A stretch of 52,113 nt of DNA from positions 1-52,113 of the IMG/VR virus record IMGVR_UViG_3300014349_000035; one strand, 5' to 3'. This DNA comes from a virus. Positions 2,399 to 46,663 of this stretch are shown one piece after another; the stretch's first letter is position 1, and every line of letters starts with the position of its first letter. Below the pieces are notes generated by a model. That model saw only the letters and a list, made by a program, of their open reading frames with translations. It was not told the DNA's origin and made no database searches. The position numbers and the translations under genes were made by a program.

Positions 2399-2646
2399 GC
2401 CTCCTCGCCCGCATCGAGGCCAACGGCGGCGCGGTGATCCGCGACGAATGGCGCTTCAGCCTGCGCCGGGGCCGTCTGTCGACCGACGCTCTGGCGTGGC
2501 TGCGCGCTCGCTGGCCGGACGCCTGCCGCGAGGCGTGGCCGCTCTACGACGACTTCGAGGAGCGCGCCGCGATCATGGAGTTCGAGGCGAACATGCCGCG
2601 CGCCGACGCCGAGCGCGCCGCATATCAGGAGGTCGCCGGATGCTGA
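2395..2646 (+). CDS. hypothetical protein
   Basis: 83-aa ORF, ATGA-coupled to ParB-like gene, overlaps the helicase start by 7 nt. Confidence 0.5.
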   Translation: MSLLARIEANGGAVIRDEWRFSLRRGRLSTDALAWLRARWPDACREAWPLYDDFEERAAIMEFEANMPRADAERAAYQEVAGC

Positions 2647-5162
2647 CCTTCGCCGAGCCCAAGGAAATCCGCCTTCGCGACTACCAAGCCGACGCGATCG
2701 ACGCGCTGCGCCAGAAGATCAGGGCCGGAAGCCGTCGCCTGATCCTTTGCGCCGGCACCGGGGCAGGCAAGACGCTGACATCGGCGTCCCTGCTGCGCGA
2801 GGCCGACCGCAAGGGCTCGTTCGCCCTGTTCATCGTCGACCGCGTGGCCCTGGTCGAGCAGACCAGCGAGGTTTTCAGCGAATACGGCATCCGCCACGGC
2901 GTCATTCAGGGCATCCACAAGCGGTGGGCGCCGCGCGAGAACGTGCAGGTCTGCTCGGCGCAGACGCTGGCCCGGCGCGGTCTCCTGCGCGAGCCCGACC
3001 TGATCGTCGTTGACGAGGCCCATTGCTTCTACAAGGCGACCCTCGACCTCATGGAACGCTACCCGCGCGCCGTGAAGATCGGGCTCACGGCCACCCCGTT
3101 CACGAAGGGCATGGGCCTGCACTGGGATGACATGGTGAACGTCATCCCGACCCGCCGCCTGATCGACGAGGGCTATCTGGTCGAGCCGAAGATCTACGTC
3201 GCCAAGAGCCCGGGCGACGAGGAGTTCACCCGCAACAGCTTCGGCGAGTTCAGCGACGAAAGCGCCGCGTCCGCCGGGATCAAAATCGTCGGCGACGTGG
3301 TGCAGGAGTGGATCGCCAAGACGCACGAGCACTTCGGCGGGCCGGTGAAGACCATCGTGTTCAGCCCGACCGTGGAGCATGGCCGCGAGCTGTGCGCCGC
3401 ATTCGCCGCGGCGGGCTACAATTTCCAGCAGATCAGCTACCTGGACCGTGACGACGACGAGCGCCTCGCCAAGATCGGCGAGTTTCGGCGCCCCGACAGC
3501 ATGATCCACGGTCTGGTCTCGTGCGGCGTGCTCACCAAGGGGTTCGACGTCCCCGACGTTCGCTGCATCGCCGAGGGAAGCCTCGTTCTTACGGACAAAG
3601 GCCTCGTGCCAATTGAAAGTGTTACCCTTGGACACAGGTTGTGGGACGGTATAGAATTCGTTGAACATCAAGGAGTTGTGTTCAAGGGATATCGCGATGT
3701 CATCGAATACGCAGGGCTCACCGCAACGCCCGACCACGAAGTCCACACAGCGCAAGGCTGGCGGACCCTTGGGGATTGCGCCGCCGAACAAGTCGGCATC
3801 ACACAGACCGGATTTGGTCGGCGGCCTGTTCGGTCGGATGCAGGTTACTTCGCCAGAGGTAGTCTGGAGAAAGCGGGGGCGGTGGGACCACGCTCACGTC
3901 CGCTGCCGCTGCACTGGCTGTGGCCGCGAGTTTGTGCGCGACTTGGCCAAACTGCAGGCCGATCCGCCCATTCAAGGGTGTCGGCAATGCTACCTGAACG
4001 CCGCTGCGGAGGCGCGCGCGGAACGGGCGCCGGAATGGCTGGTGCGGCGCGCGAAGGGCATGAAGGCGCGTTGCGACAACCCCTCTCACGTCGCCTTCCC
4101 GGACTACGGAGCGCGTGGGATCGAGTTTCGGTTTTCCTCGGCTCGAGCCTGCGCGGAATGGGTGCAGGCCAACCTCGGCTTGCCGTCGCAGGACCGGAAC
4201 ATTCAGTTGGACCGCATCAACAACGACGGTCACTACGAGCCCGGCAATCTGCGTTGGGCGTCCAAGGCGCTCAACTGCAACAACACGCGCCGTGGTGGGT
4301 GGGTGGCCAAGATGCACCGCTTCAGGATGGAGCATCCCGAGGTGCACTACGCCGACAAGACGCTCCGAAACCTCTTCGCGGCGGGCCTGACCTTCAAGCA
4401 GGTGGAGGAGAGATTCTACCAGCCGTCGGACAAGCCAAAAGGCCGGTATGGGACATTCTCCAAGCCGGACCCCGCAATCGCTTCACTTGCGAAGGACTCC
4501 TAGTTCACAACTGCGGAGTTTCCTGCAAGCCCTACCGCAAGAGCCTGTCCAGCCACATGCAGGAGATCGGGCGCGTGATGCGGCCCATCCCGGGTGAGCA
4601 GAAGACCGCGCTCTGGCTTGACCACAGCGGTAACATCGAACGCTTCGCCGTCGACATGTTCGACGTCTGGGAGAACGGCGCGGGCGAACTGGACAAGGCC
4701 GAGAAGCGCGACAGCACCCCGCGCGAGCGAAGCCAGCAGGTCCGCGAGAAGGTGGTCTGTCCCGAGTGCGCCGGCGCCCTGCGCGGCAACACCTGCATGG
4801 CCTGTGGCTGGGAACGCCCGCCGAGGTCCAACATCCACGCTGTCGAGGGCGAGCTTCGCGAGTTCGATCCGGCCGCGCTCGGCATGACGCCCCGCGCCGG
4901 GCTGCGGGCCGAGTGCCTCAAGGATCCCCGGGCCGTCTACAACGCCTGCGTCTACTACGCGATCGCCAACTGCCGCGACGGCGACTGCGACAAGTCCCGC
5001 AAGCGCGCGTTCGCGATCTGGTGCGGCATCTACCCCGGCGTGAAGGCGCGTCCCGGCTGGTATGGGATGCGACCGACCGCCCCGAGCGCCGACGCGCTGG
5101 CCCTGATCGAGCGGGAGGTCGCCCGCTTCCGCAAGCACAGCCGTATGCGGAGGGCCGCGTGA
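2640..5162 (+). CDS. SF2 (DEAH-type) DNA helicase precursor containing an intein
   Basis: ATG at 2640 preceded by AGGAGG. Motif I CAGTGAGKT, motif II VVDEAH, motif III LTATP, motif VI QEIGRVMR, C-terminal Cys4 ribbon CPECAG..CMACG. Interrupted at 3564-4511. Confidence 0.9.
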   Translation: MLTFAEPKEIRLRDYQADAIDALRQKIRAGSRRLILCAGTGAGKTLTSASLLREADRKGSFALFIVDRVALVEQTSEVFSEYGIRHGVIQGIHKRWAPRENVQVCSAQTLARRGLLREPDLIVVDEAHCFYKATLDLMERYPRAVKIGLTATPFTKGMGLHWDDMVNVIPTRRLIDEGYLVEPKIYVAKSPGDEEFTRNSFGEFSDESAASAGIKIVGDVVQEWIAKTHEHFGGPVKTIVFSPTVEHGRELCAAFAAAGYNFQQISYLDRDDDERLAKIGEFRRPDSMIHGLVSCGVLTKGFDVPDVRCIAEGSLVLTDKGLVPIESVTLGHRLWDGIEFVEHQGVVFKGYRDVIEYAGLTATPDHEVHTAQGWRTLGDCAAEQVGITQTGFGRRPVRSDAGYFARGSLEKAGAVGPRSRPLPLHWLWPRVCARLGQTAGRSAHSRVSAMLPERRCGGARGTGAGMAGAAREGHEGALRQPLSRRLPGLRSAWDRVSVFLGSSLRGMGAGQPRLAVAGPEHSVGPHQQRRSLRARQSALGVQGAQLQQHAPWWVGGQDAPLQDGASRGALRRQDAPKPLRGGPDLQAGGGEILPAVGQAKRPVWDILQAGPRNRFTCEGLLVHNCGVSCKPYRKSLSSHMQEIGRVMRPIPGEQKTALWLDHSGNIERFAVDMFDVWENGAGELDKAEKRDSTPRERSQQVREKVVCPECAGALRGNTCMACGWERPPRSNIHAVEGELREFDPAALGMTPRAGLRAECLKDPRAVYNACVYYAIANCRDGDCDKSRKRAFAIWCGIYPGVKARPGWYGMRPTAPSADALALIEREVARFRKHSRMRRAA
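3564..4511 (+). mobile_element. intein (316 codons) inserted between helicase motifs V and VI
   Basis: Block A CIAEGSLVLTDKG. Block B LTATPDHEVHT. Blocks F/G VWDILQAGPRNRFTCEGLLVHN, followed by Cys+1 at 4512. Length is a multiple of 3. The first ~150 nt have A/T-ending codons, unlike the flanks. Confidence 0.85.
3838..4503 (+). CDS. HNH-type homing-endonuclease-like protein, nested inside the intein in the +1 frame
   Basis: 221 aa from the ATG at 3838; the ORF is open from 3661. CRCTGCG..CRQC Cys cluster, WLVRRAKGMKARCDNPSHVAFPDYGARGIEF, LDRINNDGHYEPGNLRWASKALNCNN (HNH-like). Third-codon positions are G/C-rich in this frame, not in the intein frame. Confidence 0.6.
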   Translation: MQVTSPEVVWRKRGRWDHAHVRCRCTGCGREFVRDLAKLQADPPIQGCRQCYLNAAAEARAERAPEWLVRRAKGMKARCDNPSHVAFPDYGARGIEFRFSSARACAEWVQANLGLPSQDRNIQLDRINNDGHYEPGNLRWASKALNCNNTRRGGWVAKMHRFRMEHPEVHYADKTLRNLFAAGLTFKQVEERFYQPSDKPKGRYGTFSKPDPAIASLAKDS

Positions 5163-40519: not shown

Positions 40520-40705
40520 ATGAGCGACGCAACAGGTGTTATACAAAAAAGACGCGGGCGACCGACGACGGGTCACAAGCTCGTAGCCCTCCGGTTCACG
40601 CCTGACGCGCTGGCCAAGATCGACGCTTGGGCGGCTGAAAACGAAATCCCCGACAACCGCTCAGAAGCCATCCGCCGCCTGGTAGAGCTAGGGCTGGGGA
40701 GGTAG
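40520..40705 (+). CDS. ribbon-helix-helix regulator, paralogue of 22974..23192
   Basis: 61 aa. KRRGRPTTG, then LVALRFTPDALAKIDAWAAEN ... NRSEAIRRLVELGL. GTTATACA repeats at 40505 and 40538 bracket the start codon. Confidence 0.65.
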   Translation: MSDATGVIQKRRGRPTTGHKLVALRFTPDALAKIDAWAAENEIPDNRSEAIRRLVELGLGR

Positions 40706-41767
40706 GGCCTTTCTCCGCTTCGCCACGCGCTCGACGACAGACCGCTTCCCCTCTGTTGACAGGTGCGCGTAGCGACGAGTTGTCGCCGTATCCCGGTGGC
40801 CAAGAACCTCGCCGATCTCGCCCAGCGTCGCGCCGTCCGCCAGAGCGTCAGAGGCAAACGAGTGCCGTAGATCGTGCAGGCGGAAGTTCTTGAGCTTGGC
40901 GCGCTCGCGGACCAAATCCCAAACCAGAGACGGGTAGCTGTTAAGTCCGACCAGCCATCCCCCTCGGGGCGATATGCTCTCGATGACCTGTCGCGCGTCG
41001 TCGGGGAAGACAATGGTCTTCGGACCCTCCTTGGCGGCGGTCTTGTGCTGTTCCAGGTAGAGAACGCCGTCGCGGTATTGAGACCGCTTGGCCCGCGCGA
41101 TTTCCGAGAACCGAGCCCCCGTCAGGTAGAGAACCCGCAGCAGCGCGACGGCGTGGGGATACTGCACCTCCGTCTCGTCGAAAGCTTCCTCCAGCCGCTC
41201 GCGCTCCTCTTTGGTCAGGTAGCGCCTGCGCTGTGTTTCGGGGTATTTCTTGACCGCCTCAAACGGGTATTCCCCGAACTTCCACATGGCGGAGACAAGA
41301 GCCTGGAGCCGGTTAAAGGCAATCGGCCGGTCGGACATCTTGCGCTTCAGGGCCAGCACGTCAGCCTTGCCGATCTCGGCGACGCGCTTTGATCCCCACT
41401 CAGGCTTGATGGTGTTCTCTACATGGCCCTTGTCGTGGCGAGCGGATCGCTTGTGGGCGTGTTCCTTGAGGTAGCGGTCGCACAGGCTGGAGACTGTTTC
41501 AGAGGCCCGTAGGGCGGCCCTGTCTCCTGATGGATCGCCGCCCCGCGCAATGATGCCGATCCACTCCCGCGCGATCTCTCTGGCTTGCGGAAGGGTCATG
41601 CCGGGGAAGTCGCCGATCTTCGGGCGCCTGCGCTGGCCGGTGCCTTTTACCCGATAGTAGAAGTAGAACGCGCGCCTGCCATCCCGAACCCGGAACTCAA
41701 GGCCCGTTACCTCGTCATCCTTGAGGAGGGAGCCTTCAGGGGCGTTCTTGAGTTGGGTGAGGTTCAT
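40688..41767 (-). CDS. int: tyrosine integrase (P4-like N-terminal arm domain)
   Basis: 359 aa from the ATG at 41767. GLEFRVRDGRRAFYFYYRVKG N-domain. C-terminal catalytic pattern LHDLRHSFAS ... LGHRDTATTRRYAH. Confidence 0.9.
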   Translation of the reverse strand: MNLTQLKNAPEGSLLKDDEVTGLEFRVRDGRRAFYFYYRVKGTGQRRRPKIGDFPGMTLPQAREIAREWIGIIARGGDPSGDRAALRASETVSSLCDRYLKEHAHKRSARHDKGHVENTIKPEWGSKRVAEIGKADVLALKRKMSDRPIAFNRLQALVSAMWKFGEYPFEAVKKYPETQRRRYLTKEERERLEEAFDETEVQYPHAVALLRVLYLTGARFSEIARAKRSQYRDGVLYLEQHKTAAKEGPKTIVFPDDARQVIESISPRGGWLVGLNSYPSLVWDLVRERAKLKNFRLHDLRHSFASDALADGATLGEIGEVLGHRDTATTRRYAHLSTEGKRSVVERVAKRRKALPPQP

Positions 41768-42210
41768 GTGTCCAGCTTGTGACGAAGCGCCATCGCATCC
41801 CACCACGCATTGTGCTGGACCGCACCCGGGAGCGTGGTCGGGTAGCAGTCGACGTTGTGTACCTCGAACGTCATGCGCGGATAGTCTGCCGAAGCCCAGC
41901 CGCCATCCGGCCCGGTTGAGAGCGCGGCGCAAAACCGACCGATATCGACGGGGCTGTCCGCAATGATGGCGGGGTCTTCGTCTTCACCGATGAAGCGCCG
42001 GATCGCGCCACCCACGCTGTAAACCGGCACGACCACAGCATTTGTTGCGTCATGCCTATTCATCAGCGGAAGAACGTTCCGAAGAACCCACGGGTCTTTG
42101 GCATTGGCGGTCGTCTGAACGTGAATACTCCGACCAGTTTCAGCCACCATGGCGAGGCTCAGAAGCGGGCCGTTGTGCCCATCAAACTCAGTGTCGAGGT
42201 AATATCGCAT
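41764..42210 (-). CDS. DEDDh 3'-5' exonuclease (DnaQ/RNase T-like)
   Basis: ATG at 42210, 5 nt after GGAGG. YYLDTEFDG (ExoI), ADSPVD, HNAWWDAMAL (ExoIII, H-x4-D). ATGA overlap with int. Confidence 0.8.
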   Translation of the reverse strand: MRYYLDTEFDGHNGPLLSLAMVAETGRSIHVQTTANAKDPWVLRNVLPLMNRHDATNAVVVPVYSVGGAIRRFIGEDEDPAIIADSPVDIGRFCAALSTGPDGGWASADYPRMTFEVHNVDCYPTTLPGAVQHNAWWDAMALRHKLDT

Positions 42211-44887: not shown

Positions 44888-45285
44888 GCTGCGTCCTCGA
44901 AATGCTCGACGGTCAGGCCAGAGCGGGCGCACCAGGCGAGGATGAAGGTGAGGAGGTCGGCGAACTCGGCCTTGGTCAGCTTCGACGAGCGGTAGCCCAT
45001 CGGGAAAAAGCCATCGCCTTCCAGCACCGGCATGATGGTGATTTCGCAGCCCCACGCCTGCATGAAGACCACCTTCCACAGCTCGGGCGTCATCTTCACG
45101 CCGTTGTGGGTCGGGCGCTGGCGCTGGATTTGCGCGAGCAGCCCCCAAAGGGCGCTGTTCTGCGGGTCAGACCGCTTGGCCTCGCGGAACTCGATCACCG
45201 TCCCGTGCGGCGCCGTCCTGCACCATTGGGCGGCGGTCTCGCGGTTGGCCGGACGGTCGAGGATGATGGGGCGGGAGCGGGTCAT
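44884..45285 (-). CDS. ninB: NinB/Orf-family recombination protein
   Basis: EFREAKRSDPQNSALWGLLAQI ... PELWKVVFMQAWG matches the NinB pattern. Confidence 0.8.
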   Translation of the reverse strand: MTRSRPIILDRPANRETAAQWCRTAPHGTVIEFREAKRSDPQNSALWGLLAQIQRQRPTHNGVKMTPELWKVVFMQAWGCEITIMPVLEGDGFFPMGYRSSKLTKAEFADLLTFILAWCARSGLTVEHFEDAA

Positions 45286-46001
45286 ACGGCCCGCCTTTCC
45301 TCGATCACCTCAAAGCCGGGGATCGTCCGGCGGCCTTGGCGGCAGTCGCGGTTGGCCAGCGACAGGAAGAACTCCTCGCAGGCGGCGCGGTCGGTCTGCC
45401 AGTAGTGGCGAGCGGCAGCCGTTCCATCGACCAGCCGGGGCGTCCAGTAGCTCCGCAGGCCGGTTCCCGTGGTCGCGGCTTTGTCGGCCTTGCTGGCCAC
45501 CTTCGCAGCCTTGTCAGCGTCGCGCAGGGCGGCCTCGGCAGCCTCGCGGGCGGCAAGGTCCGCCGATGCGGCGCGCATGGCCTCGGCGGCCTTAGCAGCG
45601 GCTTCCTCGGCCTCGCGGCGGGCCTTCTCCGCAGCCTCCCGGCGGATGCGCTCCTGTTCCTTGCGCCACGGTTCCAGCGCCCGCTTGCACGCCTCGGCGG
45701 CCAGCACGGTCATGCCGCGCACCGCCTTGGTGTCAGAGATCAGCGGGGCGTATTTCGCCTGCACCGCCGCCTTGCCTTCGTCGAAGGGCCGGTTCTCCTC
45801 CTTGCGGGCCTCGTCGGCGGCTTTCTCGGCCTGCCTGATCTGGTCTAGGAGGTCGGCCACGGCATCGGCTTGCCCTTTCGTGGTGATGGGCTCGCCGTCG
45901 AGGAAGTTGCGAGCCTCGGCGTAGAGGTCTTCGATGTGCGCCTTGATGGCGCCGAAGGTGTCGGGCGGGTTGTTGTGGCCCATCATGCCGTCAGCCATCA
46001 C
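45282..46001 (-). CDS. hypothetical protein, long Ala/Glu/Lys/Arg coiled coil
   Basis: 239-aa ORF, coupled to both neighbours. Confidence 0.6.
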   Translation of the reverse strand: MMADGMMGHNNPPDTFGAIKAHIEDLYAEARNFLDGEPITTKGQADAVADLLDQIRQAEKAADEARKEENRPFDEGKAAVQAKYAPLISDTKAVRGMTVLAAEACKRALEPWRKEQERIRREAAEKARREAEEAAAKAAEAMRAASADLAAREAAEAALRDADKAAKVASKADKAATTGTGLRSYWTPRLVDGTAAARHYWQTDRAACEEFFLSLANRDCRQGRRTIPGFEVIEERRAV

Positions 46002-46663
46002 GCGGCCTCCGAGAACGGGTCGGCTTCACCGTTCCCCGCGGGCGGCGCGAACCGGGTGGCCTCGTTCTTCATGGCGCGGACCACGCGGGCGTATTGCTCG
46101 TCGCTCATCACCTCGCGCCATTGGGCCTTGTTCTTCGCCCAGGTGGCCTTGAACTCGTCGCCGGACGTGCAGGCGATCAGGGCGCGAATGGCGAAGTCGG
46201 CGGGGTCGGGCGCGGCCTCCACGTTGGCCATGCTCTTGTCGTAGAGCGCGAGCCCGAACGGGTTGCCGAAAGTCATCAGCGCCCGCTTCATGGCGTCCGT
46301 CTCAGCCTCCTTCAGCGCGCTCTCGTGGGCTTGGTCCACGTCCTTGTCGATGCCGGAGCCGAAGCCGCAGCCCTCGCGGATGATGACCGTCTCCCCGGCC
46401 CGCACGGTGACGCGCACCCGGCAGGAGTAGCCGACGCGCCACTGGTCGTTGCCGTGCTTGTCCTTCCCAAGGCGCGGCTCGCCAAGTTGGCGCAGGTCCA
46501 CGGTCTCGCGGTCCCATGCGTCGAACCCGAAGATGCGGTTGGCCTCGGCGATGGCGTGCCATCCCTCGATATAGGACAGCTTGCGCCCGGCCTGTTCCCG
46601 CGTGGCGACGTGCGCCTTGTTCAGCGGGGCGGCCAGCTCCTTGGTCTGTTCAGGCGTGAACAT
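45998..46663 (-). CDS. Rad52/22-family single-strand annealing protein
   Basis: LSYIEGWHAIAEANRIFGFDAWDRETV ... KEAETDAMKRALMTFGNPFGLALYDK. Confidence 0.85.
   Translation of the reverse strand: MFTPEQTKELAAPLNKAHVATREQAGRKLSYIEGWHAIAEANRIFGFDAWDRETVDLRQLGEPRLGKDKHGNDQWRVGYSCRVRVTVRAGETVIIREGCGFGSGIDKDVDQAHESALKEAETDAMKRALMTFGNPFGLALYDKSMANVEAAPDPADFAIRALIACTSGDEFKATWAKNKAQWREVMSDEQYARVVRAMKNEATRFAPPAGNGEADPFSEAA

Follow-up and report, generated by a model that had tools for sequence, protein, structure and literature searches.

The helicase gene of the phage studied here is interrupted by a class-1 intein, and within that intein, in the +1 reading frame, lies a second gene for an HNH-like protein; the two overlapping genes, intein and nested HNH-like homing endonuclease, very likely form one composite selfish element. 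The window (the whole stretch of 52,113 nucleotides analysed, IMG/VR record IMGVR_UViG_3300014349_000035) belongs to a temperate phage resembling Paracoccus phage Shpa. A previous examination of the letters of this DNA, the sequence-only reading, had proposed a splicing domain like that of a mini-intein, with an HNH-type gene lying separately and out of frame at the usual endonuclease insertion point, and the layout, the frame switch, the predicted folds and the relatives all agreed with that core proposal. Its remark that no described example was known did not hold, as Gorbalenya 1998, Gosselin et al. 2025 and Phillips et al. 2026 describe the architecture. The general type, an out-of-frame endonuclease in an intein, is already known, and the HNH-like phage family is a new, widespread member of it.

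The boundaries of the intein could be defined because the helicase allele of Shpa is intein-less. Shpa gp45 is collinear with the window helicase at 69% amino acid identity, and the window helicase start, MLTFAEP, aligned with the start of gp45. Frame 0 was free of stops from 2448 to 5162, and the precursor is composed of an N-extein (2640-3563), the intein (3564-4511) and a C-extein (4512-5159), followed by the stop codon. The insertion falls between helicase motif V (TKGFDVPD) and motif VI (QEIGRVMR). With Cys1 at 3564-3566 (tgc) and Asn316 at 4509-4511 (aac), the coordinates reproduced the intein length of 316 amino acids proposed earlier. The features of the precursor gene, all on the plus strand, were as follows.

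2640 to 5162, plus strand: SF2 helicase precursor gene, with matches to Pfam ResIII, DEAD and Helicase_C
3564 to 4511, plus strand: class-1 intein of 316 codons in the helicase frame, exactly the segment missing from Shpa gp45
3564 to 3815, plus strand: N-terminal splicing lobe, amino acids 1-84, with block A (CIAEGSLVLTDKG) and block B (TPDH at 3726-3737); pLDDT 85-94
3816 to 4415, plus strand: shadow linker of the intein frame, amino acids 85-284, open and not selected as protein; pLDDT approximately 30-40
4416 to 4511, plus strand: C-terminal splicing lobe, amino acids 285-316, with blocks F and G; pLDDT 58-88
4512 to 4514, plus strand: Cys+1, residue 1 of the C-extein and predicted splicing nucleophile; Ile at the equivalent position of the intein-less Shpa protein

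The segment 3564-4511 is a class-1 intein, and its two lobes were modelled as a Hint fold. The TxxH motif of block B was present as T55-P-D-H58, and block F/G, VWDILQAGPRNRFTCEGLLVHN, supplied the C-terminal His-Asn directly before the Cys+1 nucleophile. The best 37 PDB fold matches of the intein (Foldseek) were all inteins or Hint domains (Ssp DnaB, Mtu RecA, gp41-1, Npu DnaE), and the C-terminal splicing lobe was kept in all related loci. The Pfam and NCBIfam intein models did not match the window intein; because scans of both frames with these collections gave no HNH or intein match, the family labels used here were taken from PHROG matches, sequence motifs and modelled folds. Protein splicing of the precursor was suggested by the selection for a stop-free intein frame within essential replication genes. 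The G+C content at third codon positions was 0.56-0.57 in the splicing blocks versus 0.91-0.92 in the flanking exteins, a difference that counted for a foreign origin of the element.

The nested gene occupies most of the intein. The +1 frame was open from 3655 to 4503, with TTG 3661, ATG 3697 and ATG 3838 as candidate starts, and the conserved, folded core of the protein spanned approximately 3805-4431. All peptides that the sequence-only reading had quoted from this frame were found in the translation. The features of the nested gene were the following.

3697 to 4503, plus strand: nested gene for an HNH-like putative homing endonuclease in the +1 frame, 268 amino acids from ATG 3697
3684 to 3689, plus strand: weak Shine-Dalgarno-like AAGGGA, 7 nt upstream of ATG 3697 and inside the Lys-Gly codons of the intein
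3910 to 3990, plus strand: CxxC...CxxC zinc ribbon (C72, C75, C95, C98), with nearly invariant cysteines and weak Zn_ribbon matches
4201 to 4284, plus strand: beta-beta-alpha (His-Me finger-like) motif, LDRINNDGHYEPGNLRWASKALNCNN, with predicted strands at 169-173 and 185-189 and a helix at 190-196
4501 to 4503, plus strand: TAG that ends the nested gene, spelled within the Leu and Val codons (cTA Gtt) of block G

Three PHROG families labelled "HNH endonuclease" (374, 3377 and 2081) matched the nested protein with E values of 1e-25 to 8e-11, and its 209 homologues were mostly 255-283 amino acids long with the same end. The AF2 model had a mean pLDDT of 88.7, and the 77 fold matches in BFVD were phage HNH, AP2 or HTH homing endonucleases. 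The strands and helix of the beta-beta-alpha-metal topology were modelled at pLDDT above 90. Among 75 aligned members, D172, R173, Y180, E181 and N184 were invariant and H179 and N196 were conserved in at least 90%, with H179, Y180 and E181 located in the hairpin loop between the strands. The sequence-only reading had considered this a convincing HNH protein, a judgement that the PHROG families and fold similarity upheld, while the unmatched Pfam and NCBIfam models and an altered catalytic dyad spoke against it. Pfam and NCBIfam HNH models did not match the window's nested protein; across the family, Pfam HNH_3 matched 2 of 75 members (E 0.058) and NCBIfam none.

The altered dyad raises the question of whether the nested protein is a nuclease at all. 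The catalytic His of the canonical D-H pair was replaced in 75 of 75 sequences, which carry D172-R173, and neither Foldseek nor a profile search returned a significant PDB match to the protein, the sole match being zinc-ribbon-like. Because significant PDB matches were lacking by both fold and sequence, the protein might act as a nickase, or bind DNA without being a standard nuclease. Under one alternative explanation it would be a DNA-binding or regulatory protein, such as a pseudo-nuclease, in an element that no longer homes or that uses another nuclease; Pfam, NCBIfam and PDB all failed to link it to HNH enzymes, and Arsenault et al. (PMC11855218) regarded the HNH assignment of the Pacc40 ORF, a homologue, as uncertain. 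We consider this explanation unlikely. The PHROG HNH families matched at E 1e-25, the beta-beta-alpha topology retains conserved D, N and N residues along with the invariant Tyr-Glu, the 90% conserved His could supply the general base, and the fold matches were phage homing endonucleases. Furthermore, the presence of the element at many insertion sites in three host protein families, with intein-less alleles alongside, implied ongoing mobility.

The translation start of the nested gene is most likely ATG 3697, as judged from conservation, and it was the start position of many database homologues. The sequence-only reading had placed the start at ATG 3838; that codon is present, and is also conserved in the immediate clade of the window, but starting there would drop residues 37-47, the folded RPDLVGxxFG segment that is conserved even in free-standing relatives and confidently modelled, making ATG 3838 the less likely choice. 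The start remains uncertain because the Shine-Dalgarno-like site before ATG 3697 is weak: its duplex energy was -5.6 kcal/mol, versus -10.5 and -11.5 at two neighboring gene starts, a value reached by approximately 20% of random 20-mers from the window. The string AAGGGATAyCrnGATG was kept in the three closest relatives of the window, and in many relatives AAGGAGGT plus ATG was written in the K-E-V...Y-D/E codons of the intein. At the other end, the TAG at 4501-4503 lies within cTA Gtt cac aac, the L-V-H-N codons of block G, as had been noted earlier. The nested stop was at the same position in 22 of 36 relatives, and the Leu codon of block G was CTA or TTA in 24 of 34 cases versus 19% of Leu elsewhere in inteins.

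Programmed +1 ribosomal frameshifting near 3800 would dispense with internal initiation and fuse the HNH-like protein to the N-extein and the N-terminal lobe. Such a fusion would accord with the +1 frame being open from 3655, well upstream of the HNH core, with the weakness of the Shine-Dalgarno-like site, and with the behavior of canonical intein endonucleases, which act as part of the intein polypeptide. However, informal inspection of 3770-3830 and of the relatives revealed no conserved shift-prone site, many relatives have a +1-frame stop 1-2 codons before an ATG, strong pairs of Shine-Dalgarno and ATG occur in the polymerase clade, and the fractured and free-standing members of this gene family have an ORF of their own. 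Frameshifting was accordingly judged highly improbable, and separate translation of the nested gene is preferred.

The middle of the intein frame, in which the sequence-only reading had seen no endonuclease motifs, matched no family in a profile scan that included Pfam, and was predicted to be disordered. That reading had further observed that G/C-rich third positions follow the +1 frame in the core, and base composition agreed, with G+C of 0.82 at the third position of the HNH frame and 0.64 and 0.49 at the other two. It had then attributed the lack of intein-frame stops to the resulting G/C-rich first positions, an explanation that failed when the HNH codons were shuffled synonymously: 5.6 intein-frame stops were still expected in the window and 0 were observed, and 0 of 2000 shuffles were stop-free. 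Over 36 loci, the same shuffling predicted approximately 310 intein-frame stops where 0 were observed, while the third frame contained 384. This shuffling ruled out that GC content suffices to explain the open frame; the intein frame is actively kept open, beyond any effect of GC.

A protein search with the intein frame returned 41 matches, saturated by low-complexity words, and DNA loci were compared instead. HMM scans of 166 related loci and the window placed 60 HNH matches nested at +1, 7 nested at +2, 5 in split-intein "fractured" genes and 101 free-standing, with 0 in frame, so that none of the 72 intein-associated copies was an in-frame HNH copy. After duplicates were removed, 64 nested loci (57 at +1 and 7 at +2; GC 38-65%) remained, 63 of which had a stop-free intein frame. 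Their hosts were family A (Pol I-type) DNA polymerases, SF2 helicases and a third host protein, with several insertion sites. The layout is widespread: the phages and prophages that have it number in the dozens and come from many bacterial phyla. Two isolates, Gardnerella phage vB_Gva_AB1 and Streptococcus phage Javan255, have it in genes annotated only as DNA polymerase. Fractured DNA polymerases with the same HNH-like family were found at five loci (L021, L022, L024, L113, L123), where the N- and C-intein halves are split onto separate ORFs, each with a stop or start of its own; the window has a continuous frame with no such split. This, together with the +1 offset, bore out the view that the element is neither a canonical in-frame bifunctional intein nor a fractured gene. 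The search for relatives with the HNH in frame or without it, which had been suggested earlier, yielded none in frame, along with mini-intein relatives without the HNH insert and free-standing relatives of the HNH-like gene.

These comparisons effectively refuted the explanation that two compensating sequencing or assembly indels mask a canonical in-frame HNH intein. Such errors are an a priori possibility, and rare single-frameshift chimeras do occur in databases (P0143, P0183, P0198). The same +1 offset and open frame, however, recurred in 57 distinct loci from unrelated samples, MAGs, genomes and phage isolates, and an in-frame relative was not found among the related loci scanned. Three independent metagenome contigs approximately 80-88% identical to the window had the same helicase, insertion site, layout and open intein frame, and as one of them aligned to the window without gaps over 1023 nt, compensating indels in the window were ruled out.

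Substitutions among the related sequences showed which frame is under constraint in each part of the element. Counted by intein codon position 1/2/3 in pairwise comparisons of phylogenetically non-independent sequences (the same dependence applies to the codon counts), they were 121/56/238 in the N part, 1006/387/284 in the core and 20/10/40 in the C part. Intein position 1 is HNH position 3, and core substitutions concentrated there, while those in the splicing blocks concentrated at intein position 3. The window showed the same frame switch against its three closest relatives, with core counts of 72/33/14 against the nearest. By these codon-position counts, the core is under purifying selection in the HNH frame, and the splicing blocks are under purifying selection in the intein frame.

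This pattern bears on whether an ancestral in-frame HNH was frameshifted and is now a dead remnant, retained only since the helicase frame must stay open. Under the homing-cycle model an endonuclease is expected to decay once fixation is reached; one related locus (L023) had 9 intein-frame stops, and the HNH ORF was truncated in some relatives (L010, L106). Against decay, the HNH frame was intact in essentially all loci, and its core was under purifying selection, both in the 1006 third-position substitutions versus 387 and 284 and in the nearest relative. No in-frame, ancestor-like relatives were present among the loci scanned, and the existence of free-standing relatives and HNH-less mini-inteins without in-frame forms fits invasion of a mini-intein and not a frameshift. 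We reject the decay explanation as very unlikely.

Out-of-frame intein endonucleases were described in 1998 (Gorbalenya, as cited) and then in 2025-2026 preprints. Actinophage inteins resemble the window in having a contiguous intein, an unstructured middle, and a His-Me-type endonuclease in another frame of the same strand between the splicing blocks, and their authors propose an origin by a free-standing endonuclease gene invading an intein. By description the endonucleases are set apart: in the actinophages it is in "frame 3", with a catalytic core at residues 1-67 that matches T4 endonuclease VII, and the hosts are terminase, capsid, polymerase and thymidylate synthase genes, whereas the window endonuclease is in the +1 frame with its beta-beta-alpha motif at 169-196 after a zinc ribbon. 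In the cyanobacterial dnaX intein, an overlapping ORF encodes a LAGLIDADG endonuclease (Gorbalenya 1998 "Non-canonical inteins", as cited; Phillips et al., bioRxiv 10.64898/2026.09.14.751524). It shares with the window a disordered in-frame middle, a confidently folded alternative-frame ORF under purifying selection, a Shine-Dalgarno motif before the nested start and mini-intein relatives, and secondary invasion was proposed for it as well. However, the dnaX case involves a LAGLIDADG enzyme in a +2 ORF within a cellular gene of one phylum, while the window family is HNH-like, at +1, and resides in the replication genes of phages from many phyla.

"Hidden" out-of-frame HNH insertions have also been reported in phage DNA methylases, in the ShiLan domain and Pacc40 gp60 (Arsenault et al. 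2025, PMC11855218). There too an HNH-like ORF lies in an alternative frame and the host gene frame is kept open, and the Pacc40 ORF was homologous to the window's nested protein (tblastn 32% identity, E 8e-8, shared YGGRGI...DRIDNDGNYEPGN motifs). The methylase insertions have no splicing domain and are thought to be retained in the mature protein (PMC11855218), whereas in the window intact intein blocks lie on both sides of the insert, which is expected to be removed by splicing. In fractured genes, where a free-standing endonuclease gene separates the two parts of a split intein (Dassa et al. 2009, PMC2677866), that gene likewise sits at the standard intein insertion point and overlaps the downstream intein part; the window differs in its continuous intein frame, encoding one polypeptide with predicted cis-splicing, and the endonucleases of Dassa et al. 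are Vsr-like and GIY-YIG, not HNH (PMC2677866). Canonical bifunctional inteins (HNH or LAGLIDADG) share the insertion point between blocks B and F and the same presumed life style of homing into intein-less alleles. Their endonuclease is part of the intein polypeptide, in contrast to the window, where it would be a separate translation product.

From these findings we infer separate translation, the start site, nuclease activity, a target site and homing for the nested gene. In the proposed mechanism, the ribosome would read through the class-1 intein in the helicase frame, and the 84-amino acid N-terminal and 32-amino acid C-terminal lobes would form the Hint fold, bridged by an unstructured linker of approximately 200 amino acids that would be merely the second gene read out of frame. 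Splicing would excise the whole 316-amino acid insert and ligate the helicase at Arg|Cys. The second gene would be translated separately in the +1 frame from an internal start, most likely ATG 3697, to the TAG of block G, giving an HNH-like protein of approximately 25-30 kDa with a zinc ribbon, a helical module, the beta-beta-alpha motif and a C-terminal helical module. Helicase alleles without the intein, such as the one in Shpa, would presumably be nicked or cut by this protein, and repair would then copy the intein with the endonuclease gene into the cut allele.

We more tentatively suggest, as a possibility short of an even chance, that the overlap is a stable, co-adapted two-gene module and not a transient accident. 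The start and Shine-Dalgarno would be written in the K-G/K-E-V...D-V/Y-D codons of essential splicing blocks and the stop in the Leu-Val of block G, while the codon choice of the endonuclease would hold the intein frame open. Losing or shifting one gene would then be difficult without damage to the other, which, if true, would explain why 0 of 72 intein-associated copies were in frame. The +1-nested, +2-nested, fractured and free-standing contexts would, in that case, be natural intermediates of the Dassa model of endonuclease gain and split-intein origin.

The findings in this study indicated that the homing endonuclease of an intein can be encoded by a gene of its own that overlaps the intein, and that such a layout is neither unique nor artefactual. 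Within this intein and HNH-like family, out-of-frame nesting or separate genes were the sole arrangement found. Such nested genes are systematically missed by annotation; the records of sequenced isolates with the layout list only a long "DNA polymerase". As a case of overlapping genes, the element is a clean natural example in which one frame is merely stop-free and the other is kept as protein. The splicing lobes tolerate an unstructured linker of approximately 200 amino acids, which may interest intein engineering. For intein evolution, the data support the view that the mini-intein comes first and the endonuclease invades later, and one endonuclease family connects contiguous inteins with split inteins.

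The helicase gene of the window carried an intein with a separate HNH-like open reading frame (ORF) nested in the +1 frame. The sequence-only reading had proposed this arrangement; the observation was confirmed by the class-1 residues, by 64 nested loci and by frame-switching selection, while its interpretation was supported with corrections. The features concerned were as follows.

2448-5162, + strand: open stretch of frame 0 (the helicase and intein frame), encoding an SF2 helicase with ResIII, DEAD and Helicase_C matches
3564-4511, + strand: class-1 intein, the segment missing from gp45 of Paracoccus phage Shpa
3655-4503, + strand: nested ORF, open in the +1 frame and ending at a TAG within "cTA Gtt" (Leu-Val codons in splicing block G)

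Shpa gp45, the closest public relative of the helicase (75% nucleotide identity), was collinear with it from ATG 2640, minus one 316-codon block. The additional segment, located between helicase motifs V and VI, was assigned as a class-1 intein because its N-terminal Cys (CIAEGSLVLTDKG), internal T55-P-D-H58 and C-terminal VWDILQAGPRNRFTCEGLLVHN followed by Cys are the defining residues. AlphaFold2 prediction of the intein-frame polypeptide was confident only for residues 1-84 and 285-316, which resembled solved inteins (the best 37 PDB matches were all inteins or Hint domains), and residues 85-284 had a pLDDT of about 30-40. As anticipated, the frame-0 middle of the intein had no family match in profile searches. 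GC3 was 0.56-0.57 in the splicing blocks (3564-3803 and 4437-4511) versus 0.91-0.92 in the exteins (2640-3563 and 4512-5159); by composition, the intein looks foreign to this genome, and the contrast with the flanking helicase exteins suggested recent acquisition.

The remainder of the window was a temperate siphovirus-like genome encoding ParB, primase, terminase, portal, capsid, tape measure and integrase, and Shpa had a similar gene order. The integrase together with an exonuclease/recombinase pair (40688-41932 and 45282-46663, both - strand) indicated a temperate phage or prophage. The window yielded no tRNA genes. Another HNH endonuclease gene, canonical and unrelated (448-1179, + strand; PHROG 333 and 589), was located upstream of a ParB-like gene (1367-2398).

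The HNH identity given to the nested product was supported by PHROG families and by fold, but not by its catalytic residues or by general HNH models. The product matched PHROG HNH endonuclease families at E values of 1.4e-25, 1.2e-19 and 7.7e-11, and one endonuclease VII family at 7e-7. Its AlphaFold2 model (mean pLDDT 88.7; 75 homologues in the alignment) was poor only at residues 1 to ~35, which overlap intein block B, and combined a CxxC...CxxC ribbon with helical modules and with a beta-beta-alpha unit (residues 169-196) bearing LDRINNDGHYEPGNLRW...N. Foldseek matched this model to 77 viral models (E up to 1e-3), mostly phage proteins labeled "HNH" or "HTH homing endonuclease" or AP2-domain proteins; nothing in the PDB was matched significantly by Foldseek or sequence profile, and Pfam and NCBIfam HNH models were not matched. 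In the nested family, the catalytic His position of the D-H dyad was an invariant Arg, leaving D172, H179 (at least 90%), Y180, E181, N184 and N196 conserved. Some beta-beta-alpha nucleases, such as PacI, use a general base other than His. Nuclease activity of the nested protein is thus plausible.

Comparison of 17 pairs of related inteins indicated which frame is selected where. Substitutions at intein codon positions 1/2/3 numbered 121/56/238 over the opening 240 nt, 1006/387/284 across the HNH-coding core and 20/10/40 over the final 75 nt; the pairs were not independent, and the pattern was present in every one of them. Between the window and its nearest relative, the corresponding counts were 4/0/22, 72/33/14 and 2/1/4. 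Because the first intein position coincides with the third HNH position, selection acts on the intein frame at first, on the HNH frame through the core and on the intein frame again at the end. Blocks B, F and G are overlapped by the N-terminal ~36 and C-terminal ~25 residues of the nested ORF, and the conservation of these ends is purely a by-product; free-standing HNH relatives were without the C-terminal tail.

The survey of relatives and the open intein frame showed that this layout is neither an error nor a product of chance. A protein search with the nested ORF yielded 209 homologues, mostly 255-283 aa long, with a common end (...IASLxKD[CSF] before the stop) and often an identical MSS start. 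Motifs and HMMs of the splicing lobes and HNH core were used to scan 160 related loci taken from viral and genome collections. Measured against both splicing lobes, the HNH match was nested at +1 in 60 cases and at +2 in 7; in a further 5 the lobes were split across ORFs, and 101 had no intein. Of the two kinds of relative that the sequence-only reading had suggested looking for, an in-frame HNH was found in none of the HMM-scanned loci and HNH-less mini-inteins were present in two polymerases. With duplicates dropped, 64 nested loci remained (57 at +1 and 7 at +2; G+C 38-65%), and the intein frame was stop-free in 63; L023 had 9 stops. Three metagenome contigs ~80-88% identical to the window shared its helicase, insertion site and open frame, and one of them was gap-free against it across 1023 nt.

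The open intein frame had been attributed to G/C-rich composition. High G+C was insufficient as an explanation, since synonymous shuffling of HNH codons predicted ~310 intein-frame stops in 36 distinct loci, where none was seen; the third frame of the same loci had 384. For the window alone, 5.6 stops were expected, and 0 of 2000 shuffles were stop-free. On these sequence comparisons, the intein frame is held open by selection, implying a precursor that would be translated through and spliced.

Rare chimeric gene calls among metagenomic proteins (P0143, P0183 and P0198), which start in the frame of the host or intein and run on into the HNH frame part of the way along, were probably sequencing errors or dead copies, as they were single frameshifts truncating the host protein. 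L015 (3536-4855) had just the C-terminal half of both intein and polymerase, and its HNH-frame ORF continued upstream for ~170 aa, into unrelated coding sequence of HTH or sigma-like type; this locus may be a recombinant or misassembly. Contigs with close nested-ORF homologues were mostly about 0.9-1.1 kb, roughly intein length, and assemblies may break at intein borders because the element occurs in several contexts within one sample.

Translation signals of the nested gene were located inside the splicing blocks. The stop, correctly placed within the block G codons by the sequence-only reading, was placed identically in 22 of 36 relatives. Leu in block G was encoded by CTA or TTA in 24 of 34 instances, compared with 19% for other Leu codons in these inteins (binomial P 9e-11, phylogeny ignored). 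In the polymerase clade, the nested ATG was built from Tyr-Asp/Glu codons (taT Gax), preceded by 8 nt by AAGGAGGT, formed from Lys-Glu-Val codons, including in low-GC genomes. The corresponding signals in the window's clade were as follows.

3684-3689, + strand: AAGGGA, a weak ribosome-binding site preceding ATG 3697, kept in 3 of 3 close relatives
3697, + strand: ATG, candidate start, from Asp-Val codons (gAT Gtc)

The start originally proposed, ATG 3838, was judged less likely, as it would delete the conserved, well-modeled RPDLVGxxFG segment.

The +1 layout was also found in Gardnerella phage vB_Gva_AB1 (L162, MW387018.1 ORF9) and Streptococcus phage Javan255 (L163, MK448719.1), both annotated with one long "DNA polymerase" CDS, leaving the intein and nested HNH-like gene unannotated. 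A related HNH was at +2 in EBPR siphovirus 2 gp51 (L165, JF412297.1) and six metagenomic loci; the +2 loci (L025, L031, L077/L079, L131, L161 and L165) had a fully open intein frame and formed a sister group of polymerase inteins with motifs C[FL]..DT.VLT... and ...GP.[IV][AV]HNC. Fractured and HNH-less members were also found.

L021, 3493-4454: fractured family A (Pol I-type) DNA polymerase
L022, 393-1342: the same
L024, 3457-4484: the same
L113, 3134-4128: the same
L123, 1154-1890: the same
L113, 4252-4680: HNH-less mini-intein of the same family, 142 aa
L161, 3756-4229: HNH-less mini-intein of the same family, 157 aa

At the fractured loci, the N-extein and N-intein ORF closed at a stop and was overlapped by a homologous HNH-like ORF; a C-intein and C-extein ORF followed in a third frame with its own Met and a +1 residue Ser. 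This resembles the split-intein arrangement of Dassa et al. (2009, PMC2677866), but with an HNH-like endonuclease. The mini-inteins occupied a second site in polymerases also bearing an HNH-carrying intein. Mycobacterium phage Pacc40 gp60 (L166, FJ174692.1; 2480-2959), a published "hidden HNH", was homologous to the nested protein, with 32% identity and shared motifs, and was placed at +2 within its host gene; unlike the window, it had no recognizable intein blocks.

The sequence-only reading knew of no described example, yet the architecture itself is already known. An alternative-frame endonuclease in the cyanobacterial dnaX intein was proposed by Gorbalenya in 1998, as cited by later papers, and that case was re-analysed in 2026 (Phillips et al., bioRxiv 10.64898/2026.09.14.751524). 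Phage methylases are reported to carry out-of-frame HNH insertions with no intein (Arsenault et al. 2025, PMC11855218), and split inteins with endonuclease genes between their halves were described in 2009 (Dassa et al.). No description of the present family was found in the literature, and what appears to be new is this intein/HNH-like family, together with its breadth and its strictly out-of-frame condition. The set of +1, +2, fractured, HNH-less and intein-less relatives would fit a history in which a free-standing endonuclease gene invaded a mini-intein.
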